Shown here one piece after another: positions 2,477-64,000 of a DNA stretch of 64,000 bases (position 1 is its first letter; each line of letters begins with the position of its first letter). Source of the stretch: Desulfobulbus oralis (GTDB lineage: Bacteria; Desulfobacterota; Desulfobulbia; Desulfobulbales; Desulfobulbaceae). The stretch covers positions 806,851 through 870,850 of the forward strand of contig NZ_CP021255.1 in NCBI RefSeq assembly GCF_002952055.1, in the 5' to 3' direction. The notes beneath the pieces are model-generated. The model was not told the DNA's origin. It made no database searches and saw only the letters and a program-made list of their open reading frames with translations. The translations under genes were made by a program, and so were the position numbers.

Positions 2477-3418
2477 TCAGGTAAAGATCAGGCCGGGCGC
2501 AAGCGGCGTGCCATGCAGACAGGCGGCAAGCGGCATTCGCCTTTTGCCTTCCGGCTGGATTTCTCTGAGACACAAAAGGCCCTGACCGCTGGCCACATAC
2601 AGGCCGCTCCCATCGGCGCGGCAGATGGTGCCCGGAGCGGCGTCACTGCTCTGCTCCACACATACGGGCTTGAAAAAACGGTAGCGCCGGCCCTGCAAGA
2701 AGGCATAGGCCGAGGGCCAGGGGTCACAGCCGCGAATCAGGCAGTGCAGGCGGGCGGCGGGCTGGGTCCAGTCAAGATGCCCCAGGGCCTTGTCCAGCAT
2801 GGGGGCCTGAGTCGCGAGGGCCTGTTCCTGCGGGCGTGGGCTGAGCTGCCCCGTCTTCAGGCCCGCCACGGCCTGCACGAGCGTCTGCGCCCCCAAGGCG
2901 GCCAGACGCGGAGCCAGGGTGCCTGCCGTATCCTCCGGTCGAATCGCCTCCCGGGCCGTGAGCAGTACCGGGCCGGTATCCATGCCCGCATCCAGTTGCA
3001 TGATGGACACGCCCGTTTCCCCATCCCCATTGATGAGCGCCCACTGAATCGGCGCGGCGCCACGGTATCTGGGCAAAAGCGAGGCGTGCACGTTGATGGC
3101 CCCCAGCGGGGCTGCCCGCAGAACCGCTGCGGGCAGTATCCTGCCATAGGCAACCACAACCAGCAAATCCGGCGCAAAGGCCTCAAGCTGTGCCAGGAAC
3201 TCCGGGGCCTTCACGCTTTCCGGCTGCAGCACCGGCAGGCCATTGGCCGCAGCCAGCCGCTTGACCGGCGGCGGCTCCAGTTTCCGGCCGCGGCCCCGGG
3301 GCCGGTCGGGCTGACAGACCACAGCAGCCACCGCGTCCGGACCCTCGAGGAGCGCCTGCAAACAGGGCACGGCAAAGTCCGGCGTGCCCATGAAAATCAG
3401 GCGGAGGGGTCGACTCAT
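2477..3418 (-). CDS. fmt: Methionyl-tRNA formyltransferase.
   Basis: The protein reads MSRPLRLIFMGTPDFAVPCLQAL...PDRPRGRGRK...INVHASLLPRYRGAAPIQWALINGD and is 313 aa. It overlaps def by 4 nt. Confidence 0.9.
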   Translation of the reverse strand: MSRPLRLIFMGTPDFAVPCLQALLEGPDAVAAVVCQPDRPRGRGRKLEPPPVKRLAAANGLPVLQPESVKAPEFLAQLEAFAPDLLVVVAYGRILPAAVLRAAPLGAINVHASLLPRYRGAAPIQWALINGDGETGVSIMQLDAGMDTGPVLLTAREAIRPEDTAGTLAPRLAALGAQTLVQAVAGLKTGQLSPRPQEQALATQAPMLDKALGHLDWTQPAARLHCLIRGCDPWPSAYAFLQGRRYRFFKPVCVEQSSDAAPGTICRADGSGLYVASGQGLLCLREIQPEGKRRMPLAACLHGTPLAPGLIFT

Positions 3419-3933
3419 GCCGCTTCCTGCCCGTCCCGTGCCAGGATCTTTTTGAGTCTGTTTTTGTAAAGCGCACGTTTGAGGCCGCTCAGATGGTCAA
3501 GAAACAGAATACCCCGCAGGTGATCCACCTCGTGCTGGATGATGCGGGCAAAGCGGTCTTCCGCGTCGAAGTTCAGCGGCTGTCCCGCCACGTCCAAAGC
3601 CTGTACATGAATCCTGTAGAAGCGCCTGACCGAGGCGTGGTACTCGCGCACGCTCAGGCAGCCTTCGTCGTCGGCCACCGTGCCCTGACCGCCCGACAGC
3701 ACCGGGTTGATGAGCGCCAGATAGTCCTTTTTTTCCTTGGTGGACTGATCGACCACCACGACCTGCACCGGCAGGCCGATCTGGTTGGCGGCCAGACCCA
3801 CGCCGGGCGCAGCGAACATGGTTTCGCCCATGTCGGCCACCAGCTTTTTCAGTTCCTCGTCAAAAACGGTCACCGGTCTGGCCTGCTGGCGCAGAATCGG
3901 GTTGGGGTAGGTTATAATCTTTCGCAAGGCCAT
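3415..3933 (-). CDS. def: Peptide deformylase.
   Basis: An internal ATG at 3933 gives MALRKIITYPNPILRQQARPV...GVGLAANQIG...EGCLS...QHEVDHLRGILF, with the three conserved PDF motifs. The 243-aa track ORF is an upstream extension. Confidence 0.9.
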   Translation of the reverse strand: MALRKIITYPNPILRQQARPVTVFDEELKKLVADMGETMFAAPGVGLAANQIGLPVQVVVVDQSTKEKKDYLALINPVLSGGQGTVADDEGCLSVREYHASVRRFYRIHVQALDVAGQPLNFDAEDRFARIIQHEVDHLRGILFLDHLSGLKRALYKNRLKKILARDGQEAA

Positions 3934-4207
3934 CTTTTTTGTGGAATGGAGGAAACTTGTGCTACGTACAATCCGGATGTTATGTAATCCCTTTGGCCGG
4001 GCTTGTAAAGACAGGATAGCCACTGTCCGAGGCCGGGCAGCGATGGCCGGCTGGTCCGCCTGGTCGCACGAGATCCGCTGCCGGTTCCTGCGCTTGTTTT
4101 CTCCGGGCCGATACAGTAGATTAGCACTCCGTTTACCGCTGCCCAAAAGCGGCAGGCCCGGAATGCCCAGCCAATCACACGGGAATTCCCCCTTTCAGGG
4201 AGCAAGC

Positions 4208-10838: not shown

Positions 10839-11301
10839 CGTGGGGAGCGGCCCTTGCCCAGGGTGCTGCGGAAAGTGACAGCCATGGACGGTCCAGACCG
10901 TGCAGTCACGAAATTGGAGCCATAAAACAAGCCACCTGATATGAACGCCGCGAGAAATGAAGACGTATGCTTCGCATCTCGGGTGGCTATGCCACGCCAC
11001 CGCTTCAGGCGCGGAAAGGCGTTTGCTGTCAGGTGCCTGGCCTTGTCAGGCTCTTTGTCCTCACCACGCCGCTCTGTACGCCTGCTTTTGGGCACAATGA
11101 GCGGCGATATCCCCTGTCTTGCCGCCTGCTCAAAAATCGCATCGGTGTCAGATCCCTGTCGGCCAGCAGCCTTTCCGCAGTAACACCGTCAATCAGCGCG
11201 ACTACCTGTGTGCCCTCTGCTGTTGTACCAGCCTGTTGAAAAGCCTCCAGGCAGGGCATAATGGTGCCCAGGCGATCAAACGTTGTCGAGGGGAGGGGTC
11301 C

Positions 11302-11951
11302 ATGCGTCCTGACCGGAGGCAGGCACGGCAGAAGAGCCTGTGGCTTTCGTACGATCAACGGCCCCAGAGTCAGGGGCAGGTCTTGTACCAGCGGCTGCAA
11401 CAGCTCCTGCACGAGGAAGGATTTGATACCTTCCCCGAAAAGCTCTGCGCTCCATTCTCCGTCGAAAAATCTGGCCGCAGCTCCATCCCGCCGGGCCGCT
11501 CTTTCCGCATGCTCATGATCGGCTGTTTCGGGGCATCGACTCTGGGCCCGGCATCTGCCGGCGCAGTTCGCGATGCCCTGTCCCTGCGGGAATTCTTGGG
11601 CCTTGCCTCTGGTGAATCCGTGCCCGCTCACTCCTCCCTATGCTGCACATTTTGGAAAAAGCCAGTTTGCTGCATGGCAAAGATGAGGGGATCGACGCCT
11701 CTGCCATGGCGGCGAATGCGGCCATGAAGCGCCATTGTGCGCAGCAGGGACAGGGGCGAGATTTATCAGGAAGTGCTTGTCGCCTGGCAGAGGCAAGCGG
11801 CAGCAGGACGCCGACCCAGGCGGAATTGTTCGCCTTTGACCGCAGGCGCCAGGGCGAAAAGACATCCAACAAGGATTGGCAATCGACCACGGACGAGGCA
11901 GCGCGCAGAGCCAAACTAGGCTCAGGCCTCATTAATCGAGATAGAATATGA
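11302..11951 (+). pseudogene. Remnant of a DUF772-type (IS5/IS1182-like) transposase gene. It is frameshifted and interrupted by the IS427-group insertion, and a short tail resumes at 12742-12900.
   Basis: ATG 11302 with the RBS GGGAGGGG. The N-terminal domain reads FPEKLCAPFSVEKSGRSSIPPGRSFRMLMIGCF...LSLREFLGL (DUF772 pattern). It continues in another frame as ILEKASLLHGKDEGIDASAMAANAAMK...DWQSTTDEAARRAKL. After the IS it resumes NDGRTHCLF..., matching the conserved KDGRTHLAHK motif. Confidence 0.55.
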
Positions 11952-12739
11952 CGGAAGCCGCGAGGCACAGAGCTGAAAAGAAGGTATGCGCGCAGCAGTC
12001 ATAACGCATGGCTCTTCTCCGCCAGTCTTTGATCCTGCCAAACATAACCTCGATCTTGTGCCGCTGTTTATACAGATCTTGATCGTACGAGCAGGGTCTC
12101 TTCCGGCTCCGTCTGGGAGGGATGCAGGGTGTAATGCCTCTGGCGCGCAGGGCATCACGGAACCAGCCCGCGTCATAAGCACGGTCTGCCAGCAGCTCCC
12201 TGGTCTCGGGCAAAGCATCTATGGCATCCATAAGCAGGGCGGCTCCCTTGTAGTCGCTCACCTGGCCTGCCGTGGCCGTCGCAAAGGGCATGGAGTTTTT
12301 GGAGTTCAGCCCACCCTTTGTGCGTCCGATGCAGCGGGAAAGAGCCCTTTTTTGAGCAAACTGGCGGCGGTACGATGCGCCTTGAGGTGGCTCGCATCGA
12401 TCATCACCTGGCCATCCTGTCCCGCTGTTTTTGCCAATTCGGTAAAAATATTGTTGAGGACGCCCATCCGGCTCCAGCGCAAAAAAACGATTGTAGAGCG
12501 TCTTGTACGGACCATACTCGCGCGGCGCATCTTGCCACTGCAGGCCATGTTTGATGACATAAATGATGCCGCTGATGACTTTCCGGTCATCGACCCGCGG
12601 AATACCATATGAACGTGGAAAGAAGGGCTTGATACGCTCGGGTTGTTCGGCAGAAAGGGAGAAAAGTTGGCTCATGGCGTCCTCCTTGAGCACAAGCAAC
12701 CAGATTTTCTGCTTTTTGACAATTTATGAGGCCTGAGCC
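11919..12739 (-). mobile_element. IS5-family (IS427-group-like) insertion sequence, 821 bp, with 17-19-bp terminal inverted repeats and a TA target-site duplication.
   Basis: The left end reads GGCTCAGGCCTCATTAAT. The reverse complement of the right end reads GGCTCAGGCCTCATAAATT. Both ends are flanked by TA (11917-18 and 12740-41). The element carries an orfA/orfB transposase with an A6G slippery site. Confidence 0.75.
11932..12675 (-). pseudogene. IS427-group transposase (orfAB). The programmed -1 frameshift site is intact, but there is an additional +1 frameshift inside orfA.
   Basis: ATG 12675 follows AAGGAGG. The N-terminus reads MSQLFSLSAEQPERIKPFFPRSYGIPRVDDRKVISGIIYVIKHGLQWQDAPREYGPYKTLYNRF. 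The homologous continuation RWSRMGVLNNIF...MIDASHLKAHRTAASLLKKG lies in another frame (12306-12608). The DDE part reads GRTKGGLNSKN...ADRAYDAGWFRDALRARGITPCIPPR...RHKIEVMFGRIKDWRR. Confidence 0.7.
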
Positions 12740-12944
12740 TAAACGATGGCCGCACCCATTGCCTGTTCGAGATGGAACAAATGACACGCACGGGCATAAT
12801 AGCCTCTTTGCATCCCCTTCGGAAAATCAACCTCTCTTCAACGGGCTGCTATACGTTGTCCCACTTGTTGCGACGAGGAGTGAAGCGAGCGCCCGTATGT
12901 GGCGCGTGAACAAAACCTTCGTGAGCTCTGCAAGATGGCAGCCA

Positions 12945-12988
12945 CGTGACAAAAACAACAAAGGGCGAACCCGGCGGCCCGCCCTTTG
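12945..12988 (-). terminator. Rho-independent terminator downstream of rubrerythrin.
   Basis: On the minus strand there is a 9-bp GC stem (CAAAGGGCG/CGCCCTTTG) with a 12-nt loop, followed by TTGTTGTTTTTGTC. It lies about 30 nt after the rbr stop codon. Confidence 0.5.
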
Positions 12989-13014
12989 CACATCTTTCGT
13001 CAGACAGGATCAAC

Positions 13015-31068: not shown

Positions 31069-31253
31069 GGGGCGGCGGTTGCCGCCGGTCTGGGCATGAG
31101 CAGGATGAGCAGGACGCTCGCCGTATCCGCCCCGGAGCGGGAGCTGCCGTGGTGCATCGGCAGGGCGCTTGTTGGCGAACGGCACAGGTCTGCTGGCTGC
31201 GAACCATGGCCGGGAGCCGGAAATTTCCAAAAATCGAGGCAGGAGAAAGTTCG

Positions 31254-32747
31254 ATGGCAGCTTTGCTGGTGGTCTTGGTGTTCATAGTACTTGGCGCGCT
31301 GGCCCTTTTCATTGTCCTTGCCATGTGCTTCCGCACCGTGGTCGAGACCAATGAAGTGCATATTGTCCAAAGTGCGGATAAAACGGTTTCCTATGGCAAG
31401 GATACGGGAAACGGCAACGTCTATTATGAGTTTCCAAGCTGGGTTCCCCTGTTTGGCGTGAGTAAAATCGTTCTGCCCATGTCGGTCTTTGCCATAAAAA
31501 TCAACGAATATGAAGCTTACGATGTTGGCCGCCTGCCCTTTATCGTTGATGTGACGGCTTTCTTCAGAATCGAGAATTCCAACCTGGCGGCGCAGCGGGT
31601 TCGGGATATCAATGATCTGGAAAGCCAGTTGACCAACATTATTCAGGGTTCCATTCGTTCCATTCTGGCCAAAAGGGAGCTGGAAGAAATTCTGGCCATT
31701 CGCTCAGCCCTTGGTGATGATTTCACTGAAGCCGTGACCACGCAACTGAAAAACTGGGGGGTGGCGCCGGTCAAAAATATCGAATTGATGGACATCAAGG
31801 ATCGGGATGGGGAGAGAGTCATTCACAACATCATGGAGAAAAAGAAATCAGCCATTGAGAAGGACAGCAGGGTCGAGGTGGCTGAAAACCTGAAAAGGGC
31901 GAAAATCGCGGAAATAGAAGCACAACGGGAAACCGATATCAAGGAGCAGGAAGCCCATAAGCTCGTTGGTCTGAAAACCGTGGAAAATGAGCGGGAGGTG
32001 CAGATTTCCCGCGAGCAGGCCAATCAGTGCATTAATGCGCAGCAGAAGATTACGCAGGAAAAGGCCATGGAAGTCCTGCAGGTTCAGGAAGTGAAAAAGG
32101 CGGAAATCAAGAAGCAGGTGGAGATTGTCCAGGCAGAGCAGGAGCAGCAGAAGGTGGAGATCGATGCGGAAGCCAAGAAAAACGCCAAAATAAAAGACGC
32201 GGAAGCGAACCGGGCAAACCAGATCCTGATTGCGCAGGGCGACCGGGAAAAACAGATCCTGAATGCGCAGGCCAACAAGGAAACCCAGATTCTGGTGGCG
32301 CAGGGGGCGAAGGAAAGCCAGTTTTTGGCCGCCGAAGCGCTGCTGGAGATGAAAAACAAGGAGAGTCAGGGTATTCAGAAAATCGGCGAGGCGGAAGCCG
32401 AGGCCCTGCGCCTGAAGGAGCTGGCTCCCATCAGCGCGCAGATTGAACTGGCCAGGGCGATTGGCGAAAATGGCGGGTATCAGGGCTACCTGATTGCCAT
32501 CAGGCAGCTCGAGGCCTGCGAGGTGATCGGGGTGGAGCAGGCCAAGGCCATGAGCCAGGCAGACCTGAAGGTCATTGCCAACGGCGGCAGCATCGGCGAG
32601 GGCATGAATGACATCAAGGACATTATCAGCGCCAAGGGGGGCGTGCAGCTCGGTGCCATGCTGGAAGGGCTGGCCCAGAGCGATGTTGGCAGGAAAATAC
32701 TGGGCCGGGTCGTGGAGAGGCCGCAGGACCGGAACGGGGAAAAGTAA
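31254..32747 (+). CDS. Flotillin-like SPFH/band-7 domain protein (YqiK/FloA type).
   Basis: ATG 31254 is preceded by the RBS AGGAGA. There is an N-terminal transmembrane segment, an SPFH domain, and a long coiled coil carrying EA/Q-rich tandem repeats (ANQILIAQG, EKQILNAQA, ETQILVAQG). The track ORF from 30705 is a spurious GC-rich extension. Confidence 0.8.
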   Translation: MAALLVVLVFIVLGALALFIVLAMCFRTVVETNEVHIVQSADKTVSYGKDTGNGNVYYEFPSWVPLFGVSKIVLPMSVFAIKINEYEAYDVGRLPFIVDVTAFFRIENSNLAAQRVRDINDLESQLTNIIQGSIRSILAKRELEEILAIRSALGDDFTEAVTTQLKNWGVAPVKNIELMDIKDRDGERVIHNIMEKKKSAIEKDSRVEVAENLKRAKIAEIEAQRETDIKEQEAHKLVGLKTVENEREVQISREQANQCINAQQKITQEKAMEVLQVQEVKKAEIKKQVEIVQAEQEQQKVEIDAEAKKNAKIKDAEANRANQILIAQGDREKQILNAQANKETQILVAQGAKESQFLAAEALLEMKNKESQGIQKIGEAEAEALRLKELAPISAQIELARAIGENGGYQGYLIAIRQLEACEVIGVEQAKAMSQADLKVIANGGSIGEGMNDIKDIISAKGGVQLGAMLEGLAQSDVGRKILGRVVERPQDRNGEK

Positions 32748-32779
32748 ACAGACATTTTTCAGCAAATGCAGGAGTGCTC

Positions 32780-54634: not shown

Positions 54635-54711
54635 GGCGATGTAGCTCAGATGGTTAGAGCATGCGGCTCATATCCGCAGTGTCCGGGGTTCGATTCCCTG
54701 CATCGCCACCA
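54635..54711 (+). tRNA. tRNA-Met (anticodon CAT). It could alternatively be tRNA-Ile2 (lysidine-modified CAU).
   Basis: The acceptor stem reads GGCGATG...CATCGCC with an ACCA tail. The D-arm reads TAGCTCAGATGGTTAGAGC. The anticodon loop reads CTCATAT. The T-arm reads GGTTCGATTCC. Confidence 0.8.
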
Positions 54712-56368: not shown

Positions 56369-58294
56369 TCAGGCGATTTCGCTGCCCGGGTTCATGGCCG
56401 GGTCGACAAAGAGCAGCTTGAGTCTCTCCGTGCCATCGTCCTGTTTTTCCCTGGCCGCGAGAATCATGCCGGCCGAAACAATGCCCATGAGCCTGGCCGG
56501 CTGGAGGTTGGCGACCAGGGCCACCTTTTTGCCCAGCAGCTCCTCCGGGCGGTAGTACTTGGCAATGCCGGAAACCACGGTACGCTCCTCCGGGCAGTGC
56601 AGTGTCAGTTGCAGCAGCCTGTCGGATTTTTTGACCGGCTGCGCGGCCACGATTTCCGCCACCCTGAGATCAAGGGCTTTGAACTGCTCCAGGCTGATCA
56701 GCTCGGCGCCGCCTGCGGAACTTTTCGCGGCTTCCTTGTTGGCCGGCATCTCCTTCTTCCGCTCGAGACGCGGGAAGAGCTGAACAAGTTCGCCGATCTG
56801 GGCCCTGGCCGGCACGGCCTGCCAGTCGGCCAAATGGGCAAGCCGGGCCTGCGAAAATGCCGCCTCCATGCCCAGGGCCCTGGCCATTTTGGCCGCGGTT
56901 TCGGGCATGATGGGCTTCAGGGCCACGGCAATCATCCAGAGGCTGCCGCCCAGCAGGGCCAGCACGGTGTTGAGCCGCTCGGCCCTGTCCGGCTGTTTGG
57001 CCAGCTCCCAGGGCGCATTGCTCACGATGAAGCGGTTCAGCAGGCCAATAACCTCCCACAGGGCCTGCAGGGCCCGGTGGAAACGGAAATCACGCATTTC
57101 GGCCTCATAGGCCCGGGCCATGTGATCGAGAGCGGCCTGCAACTCGCGGTCGCTGTCCTCGAGAGCGCGGTCGCCGGCCACCGAAGGTATCCGGCCCCCG
57201 GCATATTTGCCGATCATGGTCAGGGAGCGGGAGAACAGATTGCCCAGATCGTTGGCCAGGTCCGCGTTCTGCCGGGCCAGGATGGCATCGTGGGAGAAGG
57301 AGGCATCCAGGCCGAAGTTCATTTCGCGCAGCAGGAAATAGCGGACTGTGTCCACGCCGTAGCTGTCCACCAGGTCCCCGGGCCTGATGACATTGCCCAG
57401 GGATTTGGACATCTTGGTCGAGTCCACATTCCAGTAGCCGTGCACGTGCAGCCGCCAGAACGGCTCCAGCCCCATGGCGTGCAGCATGGTGGGCCAGTAG
57501 ATGGCATGCGGCTTCAGGATGTCCTTTGCGACCACGTGTTCGGCCACGGGCCAGAATTCGCGAAACATGGGATCGCCGGGCCAGTCCAGGCCGCTCAGGT
57601 AGTTGATGAGCGCGTCAAACCAGACATAGGTCACGAATTTGTCGTCAAAGGGCAGGGGGATGCCCCAGGTCAGGCGGCTCGTGGGTCGGGAGATGCAGAG
57701 GTCTTCAAGCGGCTCTTCCAGAAAGGCCAGCACCTCGTTCCGGTAGCGCTCCGGGGTGATGAATTCGGGATGCCTCCGGATGTGCTCGATCAGCCAGTCC
57801 TGGTGCCTGGACATGCGGAAGAAGTAGTTTTGCTCCGTTATCGGCTCCGGCTCCTTCAGATGGTCCGGACACAAACCGTTGACCAGCTCCTTGTCGGTCA
57901 GAAAGCGCTCGCAGCCACGGCAGTACAGCCCTGCATATTCACTGAAGTAGATGTCGCCCTTGTCCTGCACCAGGGTCAGAATGCGCTGCACCGTGGCGAT
58001 ATGCTCCGGGTCGGTGGTGCGGATGATATGGTCCGGCTGCACGTTCAGGATGGGCCAGATCGCCCGGAACTGGGCCGAGATGTCGTCCACATACGCGCGG
58101 GGTGTTTTGCCCCCCTTGGCCGCGGCTTCGGCGATTTTTTCGCCGTGCTCGTCGGTGCCGGTCTGAAAACGGACCTGGTCGCCCAACAGCCGTTTGAAAC
58201 GGCTGTAGACGTCGGTGACGATGGTGGTGTAGGCGTGGCCCAGATGGGGCTGGGCATTCACATAGTAAATCGGGGTGGTGACGTAGGTTGGCAT
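56369..58294 (-). CDS. metG: Methionyl-tRNA synthetase.
   Basis: The N-terminus reads MPTYVTTPIYYVNAQPHLGHAYTT (HIGH motif). The KMSKS motif is present. The protein is 641 aa with the C-terminal tRNA-binding domain. Confidence 0.95.
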   Translation of the reverse strand: MPTYVTTPIYYVNAQPHLGHAYTTIVTDVYSRFKRLLGDQVRFQTGTDEHGEKIAEAAAKGGKTPRAYVDDISAQFRAIWPILNVQPDHIIRTTDPEHIATVQRILTLVQDKGDIYFSEYAGLYCRGCERFLTDKELVNGLCPDHLKEPEPITEQNYFFRMSRHQDWLIEHIRRHPEFITPERYRNEVLAFLEEPLEDLCISRPTSRLTWGIPLPFDDKFVTYVWFDALINYLSGLDWPGDPMFREFWPVAEHVVAKDILKPHAIYWPTMLHAMGLEPFWRLHVHGYWNVDSTKMSKSLGNVIRPGDLVDSYGVDTVRYFLLREMNFGLDASFSHDAILARQNADLANDLGNLFSRSLTMIGKYAGGRIPSVAGDRALEDSDRELQAALDHMARAYEAEMRDFRFHRALQALWEVIGLLNRFIVSNAPWELAKQPDRAERLNTVLALLGGSLWMIAVALKPIMPETAAKMARALGMEAAFSQARLAHLADWQAVPARAQIGELVQLFPRLERKKEMPANKEAAKSSAGGAELISLEQFKALDLRVAEIVAAQPVKKSDRLLQLTLHCPEERTVVSGIAKYYRPEELLGKKVALVANLQPARLMGIVSAGMILAAREKQDDGTERLKLLFVDPAMNPGSEIA

Positions 58295-58321
58295 GACTTC
58301 CTGCTGGATTGAGACCGAATT

Positions 58322-59296
58322 TTATTCCTGACGCGTTTTGCCTGGCTTTCTGCGGCGATTGTGGCGGGGGCGGGCGTTGGCCGGGGGACCGGCCGCAGGC
58401 GCCATGCCCGCCTTGCTGTCCTCAGGGGGCGCGTTGGCGTCCGCGTTTTGCCACTCCGCCCTGCCGACGCTTTTATGCGTGCCGTCCGGGCCGCTCACGG
58501 TGAGGGTTTCGGTCAGCGGATGCTGCTGCAGGACAGTCCAGCTTACGCCGCCCAGGTCGAGCGTTTTCCCGGGCTTGGGCATTTGCCTGCGAACGTTTTT
58601 GTACTGCTCGTATTCGTAGGTCAGGCAGCAGAGCAGGCGGTTGCAGTTGCCGGAAATCTTGGCCGGGTTCAGCGGCAGCTCCTGGGTCTTGGCCATCTTG
58701 ATGGAGACCGGGTCGAAGACCTTTAAAAAGGTGGCGCAGCACAGAGGCCGGCCGCAGGCGCCCAGACCGCCCAGCATCTGGGTTTCGTGGCGCACGCCGA
58801 TCTGCCGCATTTCGATGCGGGTGTGGTATTGCCGGACCAGCACCTTGACCAGTTCCCGGAAATCCACCCGGTTTTCTGCGGTAAAGTAGAAGATCATCTT
58901 GGAGCCGTCAAAGAAGCGCTCCACCCGCACCAGACTCATCAGAAGGCCCTGACGCGCCACCTGGGCCTGACAGAAGGAGAAGGCTTCCTGCTCCTGCAGC
59001 AGGAGCGCTTCGTACTGGCTTCTCTCGTCTTCGGTGGCAGGCCTGAGGATTTCAAGACAGGTGGGTTTGTCTGCCGGTTGCAAAAAGGCGCCCAGGCAGC
59101 CGCCCACGATGGCAGGCTCCGGGCCCTGTTCCATATGCACCATGACCAGTTCGCCCCGGTGCAGGGGGGCTCCGTGGGTAAAGGCCGCATATTCCCGAAT
59201 CCCCTCGCGGAAGCGGATGCGATAATGGTAAAGCTCCGCGCTTTCCGGAGGATCGGCAAGCCGTTCCGGTTTTTTGTCAGTTTCTGGTCCGTTCAT
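58322..59296 (-). CDS. PSP1 domain protein (YaaT/RicT-like).
   Basis: The protein reads ...CGRPLCCATFLKVFDPVSIKMAKTQELPLNPAKISGNCNRLLCCLTYEYEQY. It lies immediately downstream of holB, which is the conserved holB-yaaT arrangement. Confidence 0.75.
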   Translation of the reverse strand: MNGPETDKKPERLADPPESAELYHYRIRFREGIREYAAFTHGAPLHRGELVMVHMEQGPEPAIVGGCLGAFLQPADKPTCLEILRPATEDERSQYEALLLQEQEAFSFCQAQVARQGLLMSLVRVERFFDGSKMIFYFTAENRVDFRELVKVLVRQYHTRIEMRQIGVRHETQMLGGLGACGRPLCCATFLKVFDPVSIKMAKTQELPLNPAKISGNCNRLLCCLTYEYEQYKNVRRQMPKPGKTLDLGGVSWTVLQQHPLTETLTVSGPDGTHKSVGRAEWQNADANAPPEDSKAGMAPAAGPPANARPRHNRRRKPGKTRQE

Positions 59297-60312
59297 GCCC
59301 GTACAGGAAAGGAGCCGAGAGGATCAAGAAGTTCAAGCAGCAGAACTTCAAAAACCAGGGCTGGGTTACAGTTGCGGGAAAGGGCGTCCAGCGCCTTTTC
59401 GATGGCTGTAACTTTAGCAGATAATTGCTCTGTATTCCAGACTTCTCTGATGGCCGCCAGGGCAGGGTCGGCTTGTCCGGGCGGTGGGCAGCCAAGCCGG
59501 CTGGCCAGCGCGTCTTTCAGGAGCGCGGCAAGGGGCCTGAGCAGCAGCTCGCCGAACCCTTTGTGTTCGTGCAGCCGGCCTGCCAGGATGAGCGCCCGCT
59601 GCACCCGCTCCGCCGGATTGCCGTGGTACTCGCCCAGGGCTGCCGTCAGGTCATGGTACAGGGGGCGCATGGCGTCCTGGGCCATGCCGATCGCCAGGCC
59701 GGGACAGCCGCCGCTCAAGCGGGCCAGTTCAAGGGATTCTGCCGGCGAAAGTCCCGGGTTCCGGCCCGCGATCACCTCGGCCGCGAGTCGTACTGGCAGG
59801 GCCTGCAGGGGGATCAGCTGGCAGCGGGAGCGGATGGTGGGCAGGATGCCGGCATTATCGTCTGCTGTCAGGAGCAGCAGGTTGCCGTCCGGCGGTTCCT
59901 CCAGAATTTTCAGCAGGCTGTTGGCCGCAGCCGCCTGCATGGTATGGGCCCCGTGAATCAGCACGACCCGGAGCGCCCCTTCCAGAGGCGGAAAGCCCAA
60001 AGCTTCCTTCATCCCCCGGATGCGGTCGATCCGGATGCCCTGGCCGTCCGCTTCGATCACGGCAAAGTCCGGATGATTGCCGCCTGCCATCTGGCGACAG
60101 GATGGACAAAGGCCGCAGCCCGCAGCCTCTGGATCCGCCTGCCCGTTCCGGCACAGCAGGGACTTGGCGAATGCCCTGGCGAGCGTTGTTTTGCCGCAGC
60201 CTTTTGGGCCGGTGAAGAGATAGGCATGGGCCAGCCGCCCGTGCCGCCGCGCGCGAGAGAGCAGGCGCAGGGCCTTGTCCTGACCGACGACGCTAAATCC
60301 GCTCATGCTCAT
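59293..60312 (-). CDS. holB: DNA polymerase III delta-prime subunit.
   Basis: The N-terminus reads HAYLFTGPKGCGKTTLARAFAKSLLC (AAA+ Walker A), followed by a zinc module CGLCPSCRQ. Confidence 0.8.
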   Translation of the reverse strand: MSMSGFSVVGQDKALRLLSRARRHGRLAHAYLFTGPKGCGKTTLARAFAKSLLCRNGQADPEAAGCGLCPSCRQMAGGNHPDFAVIEADGQGIRIDRIRGMKEALGFPPLEGALRVVLIHGAHTMQAAAANSLLKILEEPPDGNLLLLTADDNAGILPTIRSRCQLIPLQALPVRLAAEVIAGRNPGLSPAESLELARLSGGCPGLAIGMAQDAMRPLYHDLTAALGEYHGNPAERVQRALILAGRLHEHKGFGELLLRPLAALLKDALASRLGCPPPGQADPALAAIREVWNTEQLSAKVTAIEKALDALSRNCNPALVFEVLLLELLDPLGSFPVRA

Positions 60313-60324
60313 CTCCCTGGCGCC

Positions 60325-61581
60325 TTAAAAGAGGCCAAGCTGCCGGGAATCGTCCTGCTTTTCCGGCTGACTTTTTTTCTTTGCCGTCCGATTCCCATGT
60401 CCGCTGTCCGGCTGCCTGTGCAGGCGCTGACGCAAGTACTCCGGCAGCCTGGGCGAGCCAGGCAGCCTGCCTAGCCGTCGCAGGCGCCGCGTGGGGGCTG
60501 GCAATGGGCACGAGGGCAGGGCCCTTGCCGCTCCGGCAGGCTGGGACGGCGCTGCAGTGGCCGTGGGAGCCCGTCGCTCCTTTGGCGCTGCGCCCTGCAG
60601 ATACAAAAAGCGTTCCAGCGGCTTCTGGTAGGCGCTCCACTGGTAGCTGTCGGGCGGCATTTCGGCCTGCAGCCCGGCCACCACGTTCATCTTGGCATCC
60701 AGGTCGTCAATGTGGTGCAGAACCAGCGCCTCGGCAGTCATGGGCAAAACCGGTGAACCGAATTCAAGCTGGCCGTGATGGCTCAAAATGAGATGCGCCA
60801 CCTGGTCTTCCAGCTCCTGCGGCAGCTTGATCTGGATCGCGGCCTGGTGCAGCATGGCCACCCCCATGACGAGGTGGCCCAGCAGGCGGCCCCGGTCGGT
60901 GTAGTCGATGGGCGGCCGTGGACCGGTAAATTCCTCCGTTTTTGCGATGTCGTGCAGCAAGACCCCGGTCATGAGCAGATCGGCGTTCAGGGCGGGATAA
61001 TTGGCGGCCACGGCCAGTGCCAGCCTGGCCATGGAAAGCGTGTGTTCCGCCAGACCGCCCTGGTAGGCGTGGTGCATCCGCTTGGCAGCAGGCGCGGTAA
61101 GGAAGCGGGCGAGTGTGTCGCCGCTGAAGATGCTTTCCAGCAGGGCGCGCAGTTCCGCGCTCTGCACGCCTGCAATGTGGGCTTGCAGCTCGGCCGCCAT
61201 ATCGGCCCCATTCCGCTCGCTGGTCGGGAAGAAATCCGCCGGGTTCAGGCCGGCTTCATCCACCGCTTTCAGGTTCGCCAGTTTGAATTGCAGTTGGCCG
61301 CCGAACTGCTCCACGGTGGCGCTCACCCGGACAAAGGCGCCCTCCCTGGCCTGCGGGGCAAAGAACTCTGCCCTGTCCCAAAGCCGGGCTTCAATTGCAC
61401 CGCTGCTGTCCATAAGCGTCAGGGCCAGATAGGGCTTGCCGCTCCGGGTTTCGGCCACCATGCTGCGGCTGACCAGAAAGACCGCATTGATCTGCTGGCC
61501 CTCCTGCACCTGACGCACAAAAACATGAGGCTCCTGTCCTGTCTCGAGCTGCGCCGTTCTGCCGGTATCGAATGAGTTCAT
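60325..61581 (-). CDS. yhaM: 3'-5' exoribonuclease YhaM (OB-fold plus HD domain) with an extended basic low-complexity C-terminus.
   Basis: The HD domain reads LLHDIAK...HLILSHHGQLEFGSPV, and an OB fold precedes it. A C-terminal tail of about 100 residues is rich in Pro, Ala and Arg. Confidence 0.7.
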   Translation of the reverse strand: MNSFDTGRTAQLETGQEPHVFVRQVQEGQQINAVFLVSRSMVAETRSGKPYLALTLMDSSGAIEARLWDRAEFFAPQAREGAFVRVSATVEQFGGQLQFKLANLKAVDEAGLNPADFFPTSERNGADMAAELQAHIAGVQSAELRALLESIFSGDTLARFLTAPAAKRMHHAYQGGLAEHTLSMARLALAVAANYPALNADLLMTGVLLHDIAKTEEFTGPRPPIDYTDRGRLLGHLVMGVAMLHQAAIQIKLPQELEDQVAHLILSHHGQLEFGSPVLPMTAEALVLHHIDDLDAKMNVVAGLQAEMPPDSYQWSAYQKPLERFLYLQGAAPKERRAPTATAAPSQPAGAARALPSCPLPAPTRRLRRLGRLPGSPRLPEYLRQRLHRQPDSGHGNRTAKKKSQPEKQDDSRQLGLF

Positions 61582-61619
61582 AGCGGCGGTTCCTGTGGAT
61601 AAAAAATACAACTATATTA

Positions 61620-63260
61620 CTAGGGATTCTTCTTATAGAGGGATGCGAGCTTGTAGCCATCCTGCCATAGGGTATAGATCTCGGAATAACCAGGCACTTG
61701 ATAAGTGTTGCCTATAATATTCCTATAATCTACAAATAAATAATCATAATCATTGATAACCCAAGTGATCCGTTTGAGTGCTTTTGAGTTCAAAGATACC
61801 AAGCCAACAGGTTCAAACTTGACCTTCAGTTTTTCGCTGTTGTCATGTTTCAGCATATAACTGTATATTTCCTTGCGACCATGACCGGCACGATTATTCT
61901 CAGCACCATATTTCATGCCAATGATATTGTACATGGCCTGTTCGTAGGGATGATTCTTGATCATTCTGGCAATACTTCCCAGGAATCCAAGGGACATGAG
62001 AAGCGGTATAATAAATAAAATATACTTTGATTTTTGTGCAACTTTTGAGTTTGCGACAATCTCTTGCAGCATCTGTATGCCGGCTGCAGCAATTACGACA
62101 AATGCCGGATACAGAATATACATGTGTCGCCATCTACCATATATCTTTATATGAAATACTATTTGAAATATAAAAAGGATAAAAAACAAACCCATATAAA
62201 CCCAGAGAAATCGATATCTGACAAAATTCTCAAATTTTCTTCCTTTAAAGGTGTTGAATATAATTAATATCGTACCAATGAGAAAGGCAATAATGGTATA
62301 AACGGGAATTGTCAACAGCATATACACGGGGAGGTAATACCAGGGCATGTCTTCCCATTTACCTACTTTTCCCATGAATTCCATGGTGTCATTCCAGTTG
62401 GGAAAATTGAGGGCGCTGTTGATAGTGTAGAGCAGGGTTTCGCCAGGATTTAACCAATAAACCGGCATAACAATATAATAAATTGCACAAAAAATTATAA
62501 TTAACCAGACGAGAGAAAAATTTGTCGTTAATCCCCTCTTTAAGCGAGGATTCAACCATGATTTAATATCATTATTTGATTTTAAAAATACTATATCTTC
62601 AACTATTGCATATGTAATATATGTTGGTATTAAAATAACCCCGTAAAAACGAATTGTTGTTGCCAGTGCGGTAAACAAGGCAAAGAGTAATAAATATATG
62701 TTATTTTCTCTGTTTTTCATTAATTTTATCATGAAAAAACAGGCAATAATATAGATTGAAACAAACAAGCCATCTTTAATATTGGTGATTGATTGAGCAT
62801 ATAAATTATAATGCAGATGCTCCATCAATACGCCTGCCAGGGCAATTAATTTGTTTGCTAGAATTTCTTTTAAGGTAAAATAAAAACAAATCAAAGCGAT
62901 AAAATATATTATAAAGCAATATAAATGTCTATTTATCAAAGATTTATAAAATGATGTCTTAAATCCTTTCAGATCCTCAATAAAAATAATGGGTAGTTGA
63001 AAAAACATCCCGTATTGTCTGTCACGCCATTCTGGAAGCTCAGGCAGATTTCTGGCCGAGATCACCGGAACTTCCCGATGAAAGAGCAGGTCGTTTATGT
63101 ATTCGTAGGTGATGAAGCCGCTGATCCGTTCCACCGCGGCATCACCAAAGATGTCATAGTCTTCATAGGTGCCAATACCGACGATGAAAATAGTGAGAAA
63201 GGTCGCCACAATGAGCCATGATGTCGCTTTGCCCCGCTCAATGAAACCCTGTCCACTCAT
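61620..63260 (-). CDS. Polytopic membrane protein, probably a GT-C-fold glycosyltransferase (ArnT/PMT-like). The gene is only about 30% GC.
   Basis: The protein is 546 aa with more than 11 predicted transmembrane helices. An acidic YEDYD motif sits in the first extracytoplasmic loop, and a C-terminal soluble domain of about 120 aa follows. Its strongly AT-biased codon usage is unlike every flanking gene. ATG 63260 is preceded by GGGGAAAG. Confidence 0.55.
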   Translation of the reverse strand: MSGQGFIERGKATSWLIVATFLTIFIVGIGTYEDYDIFGDAAVERISGFITYEYINDLLFHREVPVISARNLPELPEWRDRQYGMFFQLPIIFIEDLKGFKTSFYKSLINRHLYCFIIYFIALICFYFTLKEILANKLIALAGVLMEHLHYNLYAQSITNIKDGLFVSIYIIACFFMIKLMKNRENNIYLLLFALFTALATTIRFYGVILIPTYITYAIVEDIVFLKSNNDIKSWLNPRLKRGLTTNFSLVWLIIIFCAIYYIVMPVYWLNPGETLLYTINSALNFPNWNDTMEFMGKVGKWEDMPWYYLPVYMLLTIPVYTIIAFLIGTILIIFNTFKGRKFENFVRYRFLWVYMGLFFILFIFQIVFHIKIYGRWRHMYILYPAFVVIAAAGIQMLQEIVANSKVAQKSKYILFIIPLLMSLGFLGSIARMIKNHPYEQAMYNIIGMKYGAENNRAGHGRKEIYSYMLKHDNSEKLKVKFEPVGLVSLNSKALKRITWVINDYDYLFVDYRNIIGNTYQVPGYSEIYTLWQDGYKLASLYKKNP

Positions 63261-63324
63261 ACATCTTTCCCCACTTATTGAAATACCGGCTTTCTTTGCC
63301 TGTTACGGAATCCAGCAGCAGGCC

Positions 63325-64000
<676 letters not shown>

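Follow-up and report, generated by a model that had tools for sequence, protein, structure and literature searches.

A single AT-rich gene within a housekeeping array of Desulfobulbus oralis is, in our reading, a horizontally acquired insertion in the spacer between ychF and an HD-domain gene, and it encodes a functional glycosyltransferase of the GT-C fold and the Pfam PMT_2 clan, with periplasmic transfer to an envelope glycan as its likely role; we put the probability of this reading at about 0.6. D. oralis is a Gram-negative, host-associated sulfate reducer of the human mouth, which is associated with periodontitis and has a reduced, host-adapted genome. The inserted gene (61620..63260, 546 aa, ATG to TAG) was analysed within a window of 64,000 nucleotides, on the minus strand of which it lies together with all other features located below. 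Its protein is identical to WP_104936007.1 of D. oralis, which NCBI names "glycosyltransferase family 39 protein" and UniRef 'RgtA/B/C/D-like domain-containing', and for which no NCBIfam match was found.

Upstream of the insert lies the 3' part of the native ychF (63325..64000), which encodes an Obg-family GTPase, has a GC3 of 0.79 and runs off the end of the window, the listed part of its open reading frame being 63325..63933; in identical D. oralis contigs, the full gene matches Pfam MMR_HSR1 and YchF-GTPase_C. It is followed by its native 3' spacer (63284..63324) and by a short leader of the inserted gene (63261..63283), in which a Shine-Dalgarno-like GGGGAAAG ends 7 nt before the ATG (8 nt for its GGGGA core). 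In some strains, an A-to-G SNP in this leader creates an upstream ATG and thereby a 552-aa variant. At the other end, an AT-rich insert tail of sequence TAATATAGTTGTATTTTTT (61601..61619), in which no hairpin terminator was found, meets the native HD-domain gene (60325..61600, including an AGGAA ribosome-binding site, with the ATG at 61581). This YhaM-like gene combines an OB-fold with an HD domain (Pfam tRNA_anti-codon and HD), has a GC3 of 0.77, and is matched in other Desulfobulbales from residues 5-21 onward. Further downstream follows a co-oriented, tightly packed housekeeping array (56369..60312) of holB (59293..60312), PSP1 (58322..59296) and metG (56369..58294). As the initial annotation had noted, the islet gene is thus co-oriented with ychF on its upstream side and with the HD/yhaM-like gene, holB, PSP1 and metG on its downstream side. 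Promoter-like and terminator-like matches do not exceed the expectation from shuffled sequence, and expression would probably come about by read-through from the ychF/HD/holB/PSP1/metG array, with the gene's own Shine-Dalgarno being used.

The orthologous site in relatives speaks for an insertion. In about 30 other Desulfobulbales loci ychF directly adjoins the HD (yhaM-like) gene, and 0/80 Desulfobulbales loci contain any counterpart of the islet protein, which together indicate a lineage-specific single-gene insertion. This adjacency answers the synteny question that the initial annotation had raised, and low-GC orthologs at the same site across the family, which it had named as evidence against its reading, are absent from all 80 loci. 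The locus therefore shows both an atypical composition (see below) and absence from the orthologous site. In the closest empty-site locus (L006), ychF and the HD gene share 85% and 68% amino acid identity with those of D. oralis, respectively. The native ychF spacer can be aligned to this site, with homology passing the ychF stop codon up to ..ACAGGCAAAGA (at about 63293) and possibly, by alignment, up to 63283, and the leader that follows has no counterpart there. When the islet is removed in a global alignment, the N-terminus of the L006 HD protein is found to be shorter and different, and for this reason the 3' breakpoint can be placed only approximately; neither breakpoint is defined to the single nucleotide.

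No traces of a mobile element accompany the insertion. Searches for tRNAs and repeats bore out the earlier remark that IS elements, tRNAs and direct repeats are missing from the flanks: there is no tRNA within 7 kb, no IS element at either flank and no direct or inverted repeat bracketing the islet, and hence none of the usual signatures of mobility (integrase, transposase, tRNA target, flanking repeats) is present. A 6-nt GTATTT occurs near both ends, which is within chance. Most likely, a naked DNA fragment would have been integrated by illegitimate or flank-mediated recombination, rather than by way of a mobile element.

Base composition sets the gene apart from everything around it. The ORF has a GC content of 36.3% (GC1 0.39, GC2 0.30, GC3 0.40), where the whole window has 61.6%. 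Over 500-bp windows outside the islet, the mean GC is 0.623 (sd 0.039, minimum 0.49); within it the minimum is 0.274, some 9 sd below the rest. The codon usage is likewise foreign, with TTA accounting for 27% of Leu codons (1% in the neighbours), ATA for 29% of Ile codons (3%) and AGA for 38% of Arg codons (4%). As such, the sliding-window and codon-usage profiles show the marked deviation that had been expected. The low-GC, single-gene islet stood up as a strong drop in GC, but the value of "roughly 30%" fits only its AT-richest core (roughly 62500-63000, 26-30% GC), the gene as a whole being at 36%. Similarly, recovery within tens of base pairs was claimed for both sides and holds for the 3' side, where GC changes sharply around 61601; on the 5' side the change is gradual, with codons 1-85 at about 50% GC (GC3 0.57-0.67) and a drop to 18% GC within the ORF at about codon 90. 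BLAST by segments did not point to different parents for the GC-rich and AT-rich patches.

Could such a composition arise without any transfer? GC1 and GC2 are lowered by the many Ile, Leu, Tyr, Phe, Lys and Asn residues of the protein, and all sampled lineages of D. oralis already carry the gene; both would suit an ancient resident gene that owes its AT-richness to the amino-acid composition of a membrane protein. However, GC3 is independent of amino-acid content, and at 0.40 it falls far outside the 0.68-0.86 of the other genes called in the window, none of which lies below 0.68, as judged on genes from a crude GC3-based caller. Moreover, the choice among synonymous codons is alien, the site is empty of the gene in 80 related loci, and the nearest homolog anywhere shares 39% identity and resides in a 33% GC genome. 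We therefore regard long-term residence as extremely improbable, and return to horizontal acquisition.

That nearest relative (P0002) stands at the near end of a wide gap, as neither 5.8 billion clusters nor 1.84 billion representatives yielded a homolog between 39% and 97% identity. Most of the relatives live in low-GC hosts: the closest homologs lie in loci of 33-46% GC, and the median over 80 metagenome loci of homologs is 0.435. Candidate vehicles were considered and rejected. For a phage origin, no relative was found in IMG/VR, nor in INPHARED by tblastn, and BFVD yielded only distant GT-C folds. A homolog with 25% identity, which a non-mobilizable 134-kb plasmid from a cockroach-gut deltaproteobacterium carries in a GDP-Man/UDP-GlcA glycan locus, is not a donor.

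Within the species, the islet is present in the same arrangement in all retrieved D. oralis contigs that reach the site, and no presence/absence polymorphism was seen among them. Across three D. oralis lineages the gene has a dN of 0.005-0.009 and a dS of 0.13-0.16, giving a dN/dS of 0.04-0.05, from which it follows that the gene is functional; the HD gene has an omega of 0.25-0.33 in the same comparison. Judged by these substitution patterns, the islet gene is under strong purifying selection and kept intact. All alleles are indeed intact, with no homopolymer longer than T6 that could provide phase variation. Synonymous divergence of the islet gene is about three times that of its flanks.

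The architecture of the protein, a polytopic N-terminal domain followed by a soluble C-terminal one, came out much as first described. Residues 12-436 (61953..63227) form a transmembrane GT-C core of about 11 TM helices, with two larger outer loops at residues 35-103 and 265-319, and residues of about 440-546 (61623..61943) form an alpha/beta domain that is predicted to be periplasmic and is conserved across the family; full-length profile matches, in more than 150 representatives, reach profile position ~538 of 540. An HMM search placed the protein in a glycosyltransferase family, as anticipated: residues 112-222 (62595..62927) match PMT_2 (PF13231; E 9.3e-9, profile positions 25-133 of 160) with 36.1 bits, above the gathering score of 26.1. 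For the AF2 model (pLDDT 82.6), all strong structural matches are GT-C glycosyltransferases. The protein has what marks the GT-C fold, namely an N-terminal membrane domain with a TM count in the range of 7-13, structural similarity to solved GT-C enzymes, and a conserved acidic residue in the first extracytoplasmic loop. This residue is Asp40 (codon at 63141..63143), located just after TM1 (residues 12-34), which is the putative catalytic base and is D in 60/60 family members. Equally invariant in 60/60 are E95, H112, K162, R204, Y374 and W377. An acidic YEDYD string had been highlighted in this loop, and it does exist at residues 32-36, but within it only D34 (53/60) and Y35 (58/60) are conserved, and the actual conserved motif is (D)Y-x4-D40. 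This family of PMT_2-clan GT-C enzymes comprises more than 3,800 clusters at 50% identity; it is experimentally uncharacterised, and no solved structure is detectable by sequence.

In two positions the D. oralis protein departs from its family. The Glu that follows Asp40 is near-invariant (54/60) and has become Ala (E41 to A) only in the protein of D. oralis and in P0002, its nearest relative (2/60); the same pair has lost the near-invariant R152, with N in D. oralis and S in P0002. From the alignment, these two losses may mean an altered chemistry. Together with the mosaic GC and the threefold synonymous divergence, they could mean a non-canonical GT-C enzyme with an exchanged core. Taken to its full extent, this would make the D. 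oralis enzyme and P0002 a sub-lineage with changed chemistry and a non-canonical donor or acceptor, whose AT-rich core has repeatedly been exchanged with an unsampled reservoir, and which was acquired as a host-adaptation determinant remodelling the surface glycan that this periodontal pathobiont presents to the human immune system. We consider this a long shot, and proceed from an envelope-glycan glycosyltransferase of the ordinary GT-C kind.

What, then, would the enzyme transfer, and onto what? Homologs offer some guidance through their genomic surroundings. In two loci (L004 and L005) the homolog comes after a GT2 and a GtrA gene, beside teichoic-type genes, and in L002/L003 and on the P0008 contig it is surrounded by genes for Wzx, pyruvyl-transferase and GT2 proteins. 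Over their full length, the GT2s in these neighbourhoods are homologous to ArnC (E 1e-44 to 1e-47), GtrB (1e-25) and Dol-P-Man synthase. An ArnC/GtrB-like GT2 is present in 13/46 metagenome loci of at least 6 kb, in 9 of these within 1 kb, and since 72% of the surveyed family loci have no adjacent GT2, the association is enriched rather than obligatory. Some close homologs have DUF3048 and Glyphos_transf (teichoic-acid) genes around them, in loci of Gram-positive character. Partner genes of the three-component kind are found in L004, L005, L002 and 13/46 surveyed loci, and not in the window, where tblastn with four GtrB/ArnC-like GT2s and two GtrA proteins gave nothing below E 0.77; the donor pathway in D. 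oralis is therefore putative.

On this basis, the protein probably works in the periplasm, where it would glycosylate an envelope glycan with sugar from a lipid-linked donor. The enzyme would be the third, GtrC-like component of a three-component periplasmic pathway, a scheme that is established for GT-C enzymes (PMC11127046), with the lipid-sugar synthase (a GtrB/ArnC-like GT2) and the flippase presumably encoded elsewhere in the D. oralis genome. Like other GT-C enzymes, it would draw its monosaccharide from a polyprenyl-phosphate-sugar after this had been flipped to the periplasmic face. Asp40 would act as the base, while the lipid phosphate and the sugar may be held by the invariant K162, R204 and H112 along with the Y374/W377 cluster. 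The sugar would then pass to an envelope glycan, which may be the O-chain or core of LPS, or a capsular or exopolysaccharide. The suggestion that lipid A/LPS or a surface protein might be modified fares less well in part, as the homolog contexts favour Gtr-type glycosylation of glycan side chains over lipid A or protein. Fold and sequence do not reveal the acceptor itself: with these same partners, enzymes of the GT-C fold act on proteins (PMC12041528) or on lipid A (ArnT).

A different use of lipid-linked sugars would be that of a Wzy-type polymerase or WaaL-type ligase, acting on repeat units linked to undecaprenyl-diphosphate. A polytopic membrane protein of suitable size, with some homologs in Wzx-containing clusters, would be in keeping with this. 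Nevertheless, no Pfam Wzy_C or O-antigen ligase match appears even at E up to 10, in line with the low likelihood given to a Wzy-type polymerase from the start, and no ligase or polymerase fold is among the top 21 structural matches. The invariant loop-1 Asp and the pairing with a polyprenyl-monophosphate sugar synthase and GtrA point to a monosaccharide donor instead, and we hold polymerase or ligase activity to be very improbable.

If the periplasmic glycan glycosyltransferase is what we take it to be, a foreign envelope enzyme that is conserved species-wide is a plausible determinant of surface antigenicity in D. oralis, and serum or antimicrobial-peptide resistance and masking of phage receptors are other plausible effects. 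The locus also makes a neat textbook example of single-gene transfer into an operon that left no scar of a mobile element. At the same time, it is a clean but ordinary example of a foreign gene: genes of this kind are already familiar, as are its likely mechanism and annotation, and databases already label it a glycosyltransferase.

Compared with known systems, the ArnT/PMT-type assignment (GT39/GT83) first given to the protein holds as far as the GT-C fold and the PMT_2 match go, but strict membership of GT39 or GT83 remains putative. An enzyme of the ArnT/Rgt type would move a sugar, charged or neutral, such as L-Ara4N, GalA or GalN from undecaprenyl-phosphate to lipid A phosphates or the LPS core, and thereby alter susceptibility to cationic peptides. 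PMT_2 is indeed the Pfam family of ArnT and RgtA-D, the UniRef name points the same way, ArnC is the protein that the GT2s next to homologs resemble most, and the host is Gram-negative and host-associated. However, unlike ArnT (CAZy GT83; PDB 5EZM/5F15) and the rhizobial RgtA-D, the islet protein has about 11 TM helices, not 13. Profile searches detect no sequence similarity to them: the family profile retrieves neither ArnT nor PMT sequences from the PDB at E up to 10, and no sequence link of the family to solved structures was found. In structure, ArnT is no better a match than ALG12, PMT or STT3. What ties an enzyme to GT83, a sequence relationship to a characterised ArnT and an arn-type gene context, is lacking here, with no arn or rgt partner genes in the 64-kb window; furthermore, close homologs occur in the DUF3048 and Glyphos_transf loci of Gram-positive character, where lipid A is absent, and others inside Wzx-type polysaccharide clusters. 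Lipid A or core modification of this type is thus rather unlikely.

Were it a protein O-glycosyltransferase (PMT-like or PgtC/YfhO-like), the enzyme would attach a hexose, drawn from polyprenyl-phosphate-hexose, to Ser/Thr residues of proteins in the periplasm or at the surface. The NCBI name agrees with this, Pfam PMT is matched in 7/60 relatives (PMT_2 in 42/60), and pairs of GtrB and a GT-C enzyme glycosylate proteins in streptococci (PMC12041528). Unlike the protein O-mannosyltransferases (CAZy GT39; Pmt1/2/4; actinobacterial PMT), the islet protein is about 200 residues shorter, has no long loop 5, and gives no match to PF02366, MIR or PMT_4TMC at E up to 10, PMT_2 being the only one. It accordingly does not have the GT39 combination of PF02366, a large lumenal loop with MIR domains and a C-terminal 4TMC module, and of the Asp-Glu motif in loop 1 it keeps the Asp (D40) with Ala in place of Glu, so that DE reads DA. 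The homologs, moreover, lie in polysaccharide or teichoic loci, not in those of adhesins or glycoproteins. Protein glycosylation hence seems unlikely, and glycan glycosylation is retained.

Enzymes of the YfhO/GtlB type glycosylate teichoic acids together with CsbB/GtlA and GtcA (PMC7389260). The triad of GT2, GtrA-family flippase and GT-C enzyme near teichoic-acid genes, as seen for the homologs P0004 and P0007, resembles this arrangement. The islet protein differs in matching Pfam PMT_2, not YfhO, and in belonging to a Gram-negative host. A further parallel in design is with the GtrC-type (Gtr*) systems, known from O-antigen glucosylation in Shigella and Salmonella and from Citrobacter ORF12/GT136 (PMC11127046). 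Unlike these, the islet protein has no detectable sequence relationship to Pfam Glucos_trans_II or GT136, and its gene is not phage-borne, has no gtrA or gtrB beside it in D. oralis, and was inserted alone in a housekeeping operon, not next to a tRNA or prophage. Like them, it has a GT-C fold whose first outer loop carries an acidic residue, and a periplasmic domain at the C-terminus that is variable; its homologs stand beside a GtrB/ArnC-like synthase and GtrA in glycan loci, and, as with gtr genes, the gene is horizontally mobile and compositionally foreign.

The islet, a single AT-rich open reading frame on the minus strand (61620..63260, ATG to TAG, 546 aa) between ychF and a native YhaM-like gene with OB-fold and HD domains (the HD gene), is foreign in origin, fixed and constrained. 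The initial annotation had described it as a foreign, single-gene glycosyltransferase islet, and we judge that reading to be correct. GC content is ~0.60-0.65 on either side of the ORF and falls to 0.26-0.43 across it, with an islet minimum of 0.274 against a mean of 0.623 (sd 0.039) for the 500-bp windows outside it. The ORF has 36.3% GC and a GC3 of 0.40, within a window of 61.6% GC in which all genes called by a simple frame-composition caller have a GC3 of 0.68-0.86. Its synonymous codon choice is grossly unlike that of the four downstream genes, and the profile as a whole thus bears out a foreign composition. The figure of 30% GC given initially applies to the core, not to the whole ORF, and of the sharp change described for both sides, only the 3’ edge (~61601) stands. 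As the first 85 codons have ~50% GC (GC3 0.57-0.67), the trough starts within the ORF, reaching 18% GC in codons 91-135. Further GC-richer patches at codons 271-330 and ~376-480 make for a mosaic composition, the homologous genes being far more uniform in GC, and segment-wise BLAST showed no different parents for these patches. Elsewhere, 31371-32773 and 10839-13014 have a mildly lowered GC (0.54-0.57), with 500-bp windows near 31200-32100 as low as 0.49; a crude GC3-based gene caller accepted no ORFs in either stretch.

When the HD protein was scanned against GTDB species representatives, 80 Desulfobulbales loci were returned. According to tblastn, ychF lies directly upstream of the HD gene in ~30 of these, with 18-280 nt separating the end of ychF from where the HD match begins, and none of the 80 carries a homolog of the islet protein. 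The nearest such locus, L006 of an uncultured Desulfobulbus sp. (ychF 85%, HD 68% identity), aligns to the islet-deleted window through the ychF stop codon and as far as 63293-63283 or so, a stretch that takes in a conserved ACAGGCAAAGA element, and the alignment picks up again in the HD coding region. In L006 the N-terminus encoded by the HD gene is unrelated and shorter, in a frame already open 8 nt beyond the stop codon of ychF, whereas that of D. oralis is longer by ~25 N-terminal codons, which are common to more distant Desulfobulbales (L006:1215-1260 vs window 61505-61581). Because of this shorter N-terminus, the 3’ breakpoint was placed by composition, and it is also set by HD residues 5-21 being matched in other relatives; a MAFFT pairing of L006 at this junction was withdrawn as misleading. 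The alignment limits and composition together restrict the foreign segment to at most 1.7 kb, in which the ORF is preceded by a 23-nt leader containing GGGGAAAG and followed by 19 nt of AT-rich sequence.

Integration would have occurred through illegitimate or flank-mediated recombination. No repeats were found bracketing the gene and the nearest tRNAs are at 54635 and 4105, in agreement with the initial observation that flanking tRNAs and direct repeats are missing. The latter tRNA, a 79-nt tRNA-Pro(TGG) called by ARAGORN at 4105-4183, overlaps the end of an ORF (3415..4146) and stays under the gathering score of the Rfam tRNA model. Several other Desulfobulbales have altered ychF-HD spacers. 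A Desulfocapsaceae MAG (JAUSAB010000085.1, L048:5274-5985) carries a different insert of 730 nt and lower GC (0.42 vs 0.52), encoding two proteins, one with DUF4258 (E 4.8e-17) and the other a CxxC zinc-finger protein weakly like the MqsA antitoxin, together a candidate toxin-antitoxin pair judging by sequence. In Desulfocapsa sp. ppb01 (L036:2814-3567) the spacer has grown by 4.0 tandem copies of 190 nt, 99% identical, and two further loci (L050 and L067) have enlarged spacers of 380-420 nt and lower GC. The spacer seems to have taken up insertions repeatedly across Desulfobulbales.

The islet protein exactly matches AVD70714.1 / WP_104936007.1, named ‘glycosyltransferase family 39 protein [Desulfobulbus oralis]’, and is a ‘Glycosyltransferase RgtA/B/C/D-like domain-containing protein’ in UniRef; the contig carrying it is 2.77 Mb long. 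At 90% identity it falls into a cluster of 97 members, and every member with an inspected contig shows the same D. oralis context. Some strains have a 552-aa variant (L098:566-2224): one SNP in the leader (A to G, window ~63275) turns AATAAG into AATGAG, and gene callers start at the upstream in-frame ATG that this creates. The islet occupies the identical site in three D. oralis lineages (the window with its identical contigs L091 and L092; L001; L087-L090), which diverge by 2.1-2.4% in the flanks and 3.0-3.7% in the islet. Nei-Gojobori estimates across these lineages give the islet a dN of 0.005-0.009, a dS of 0.13-0.16 and an omega of 0.04-0.05, compared to a dS of ~0.056 and an omega of 0.25-0.33 for the HD gene, and a dS of 0.02-0.06 for holB and part of ychF. 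Its presence in all three lineages, together with this low omega, therefore means that the islet is older than the diversification of the sampled lineages and is constrained, more strongly at the protein level than its housekeeping neighbors. Synonymous divergence is ~3x that of the flanking genes, while dN is lower. The AT-rich core is where the changes concentrate, at 13 per 150 nt compared with 3 over the same length of the GC-richer 5’ end, and they go W-to-S and S-to-W alike. The high dS may reflect either relaxed synonymous constraint or deeper or imported alleles.

The protein has a GT-C fold with a conserved Asp in loop 1. Pfam PMT_2 (PF13231) matches residues 112-222 at 36.1 bits, over a gathering score of 26.1, with no other credible Pfam match and none in NCBIfam. 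An AF2 model built from a 13-sequence alignment (mean pLDDT 82.6, pTM 0.86) has ~11 TM helices, with larger outer loops at 35-103 and 265-319, and folds into an alpha/beta domain at the C-terminus (~440-546), matching the membrane and soluble domains initially proposed. A sequence profile of the family retrieved no PDB entry, and kinship to solved GT-Cs is therefore at the fold level only. The protein belongs to the GT-C superfamily and to PMT_2. Neither GT39, the NCBI name, nor GT83, both proposed at first, finds support: for GT39 the PMT, MIR and 4TMC domains are absent, and GT83 lacks backing at the sequence level. Loop 1 carries DA instead of DE.

A word-seeded search, with 59 matches and only ~12 full-length, suggested a rare family. 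Exhaustive profile searching instead yielded 10,990 representatives with E ≤1e-3, 3,897 of them with E ≤1e-30, and >150 matches that span the full length, C-terminal domain included; the family is large, not rare. The nearest relative, P0002, is 39% identical, and the second-nearest 34.5%. In a 60-member alignment D40, E95, H112, K162, R204, P266, G297, Y374, W377 and P438 are invariant, and the loop 1 consensus reads D-Y-G-I-S-x-D-E. The YEDYD motif noted initially overlaps this consensus but ends in an Asp that 51/60 members replace with Gly, D40 being the invariant acid. Only the islet protein and P0002 have Ala for E41 (codon 41, 63138-63140). Arg152, kept in 56/60, is Asn in the islet protein and Ser in P0002, and P151 is Tyr in the islet protein alone (codons 151-152, 62805-62810). 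From the alignment, joint loss of E41 and R152 could mean that a salt bridge has gone or that specificity has changed.

Overall, the islet is nothing out of the ordinary: it is a horizontally acquired, probable surface-glycan glycosyltransferase, and databases already annotate it as a glycosyltransferase. Modestly unusual are its scar-less, single-gene insertion within a housekeeping operon, its mosaic GC content together with the high dS, the substitutions that its sub-lineage carries at two near-invariant positions, and the reuse of the spacer by other insertions in other Desulfobulbales. Its expression would come from read-through of the ychF-to-metG array, which is tightly spaced without a predicted terminator, using the gene’s own Shine-Dalgarno; promoter-like and terminator-like matches around the islet show no excess over shuffles. 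The enzyme would take a polyprenyl-phosphate monosaccharide, presumably made elsewhere in the D. oralis genome, and transfer the sugar to an envelope glycan on the periplasmic face.

Family members are frequently duplicated. Homologs P0004 and P0007 sit behind a GT2 of 315-318 aa and a GtrA-family protein, and precede a tandem paralog ~31% identical to the islet protein (L004:3669-6884 and L005:2213-5440), with DUF3048 and teichoic-type genes adjoining. P0002 and P0008 lie within polysaccharide clusters (Wzx, pyruvyl-transferase, GT2), a plasmid homolog lies amid GDP-mannose and UDP-glucuronate genes, and a 205-kb metagenome contig (OGGQ01000015.1) holds at least three separate copies (L107, L116, L129). 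The adjoining GT2s match ArnC along their entire length (E 1e-44 to 1e-47), as well as GtrB sll0501 (1e-25) and Dol-P-Man synthase. Among 80 surveyed metagenome loci, 46 are ≥6 kb; 13 of these have such a GT2 (within 1 kb in 9), 4 have GtrA, and 14 have more than one family copy, in tandem. Judging from gene content, these contexts are the signature of three-component extracytoplasmic glycosylation, a system reviewed and extended in PMC11127046, whose partner genes can also serve protein (PMC12041528) or teichoic-acid glycosylation (PMC7389260). Since the 64-kb window holds neither a GtrB/ArnC-like GT2 nor GtrA, the D. oralis enzyme is, like most family members, an ‘orphan’ third component of such a system.
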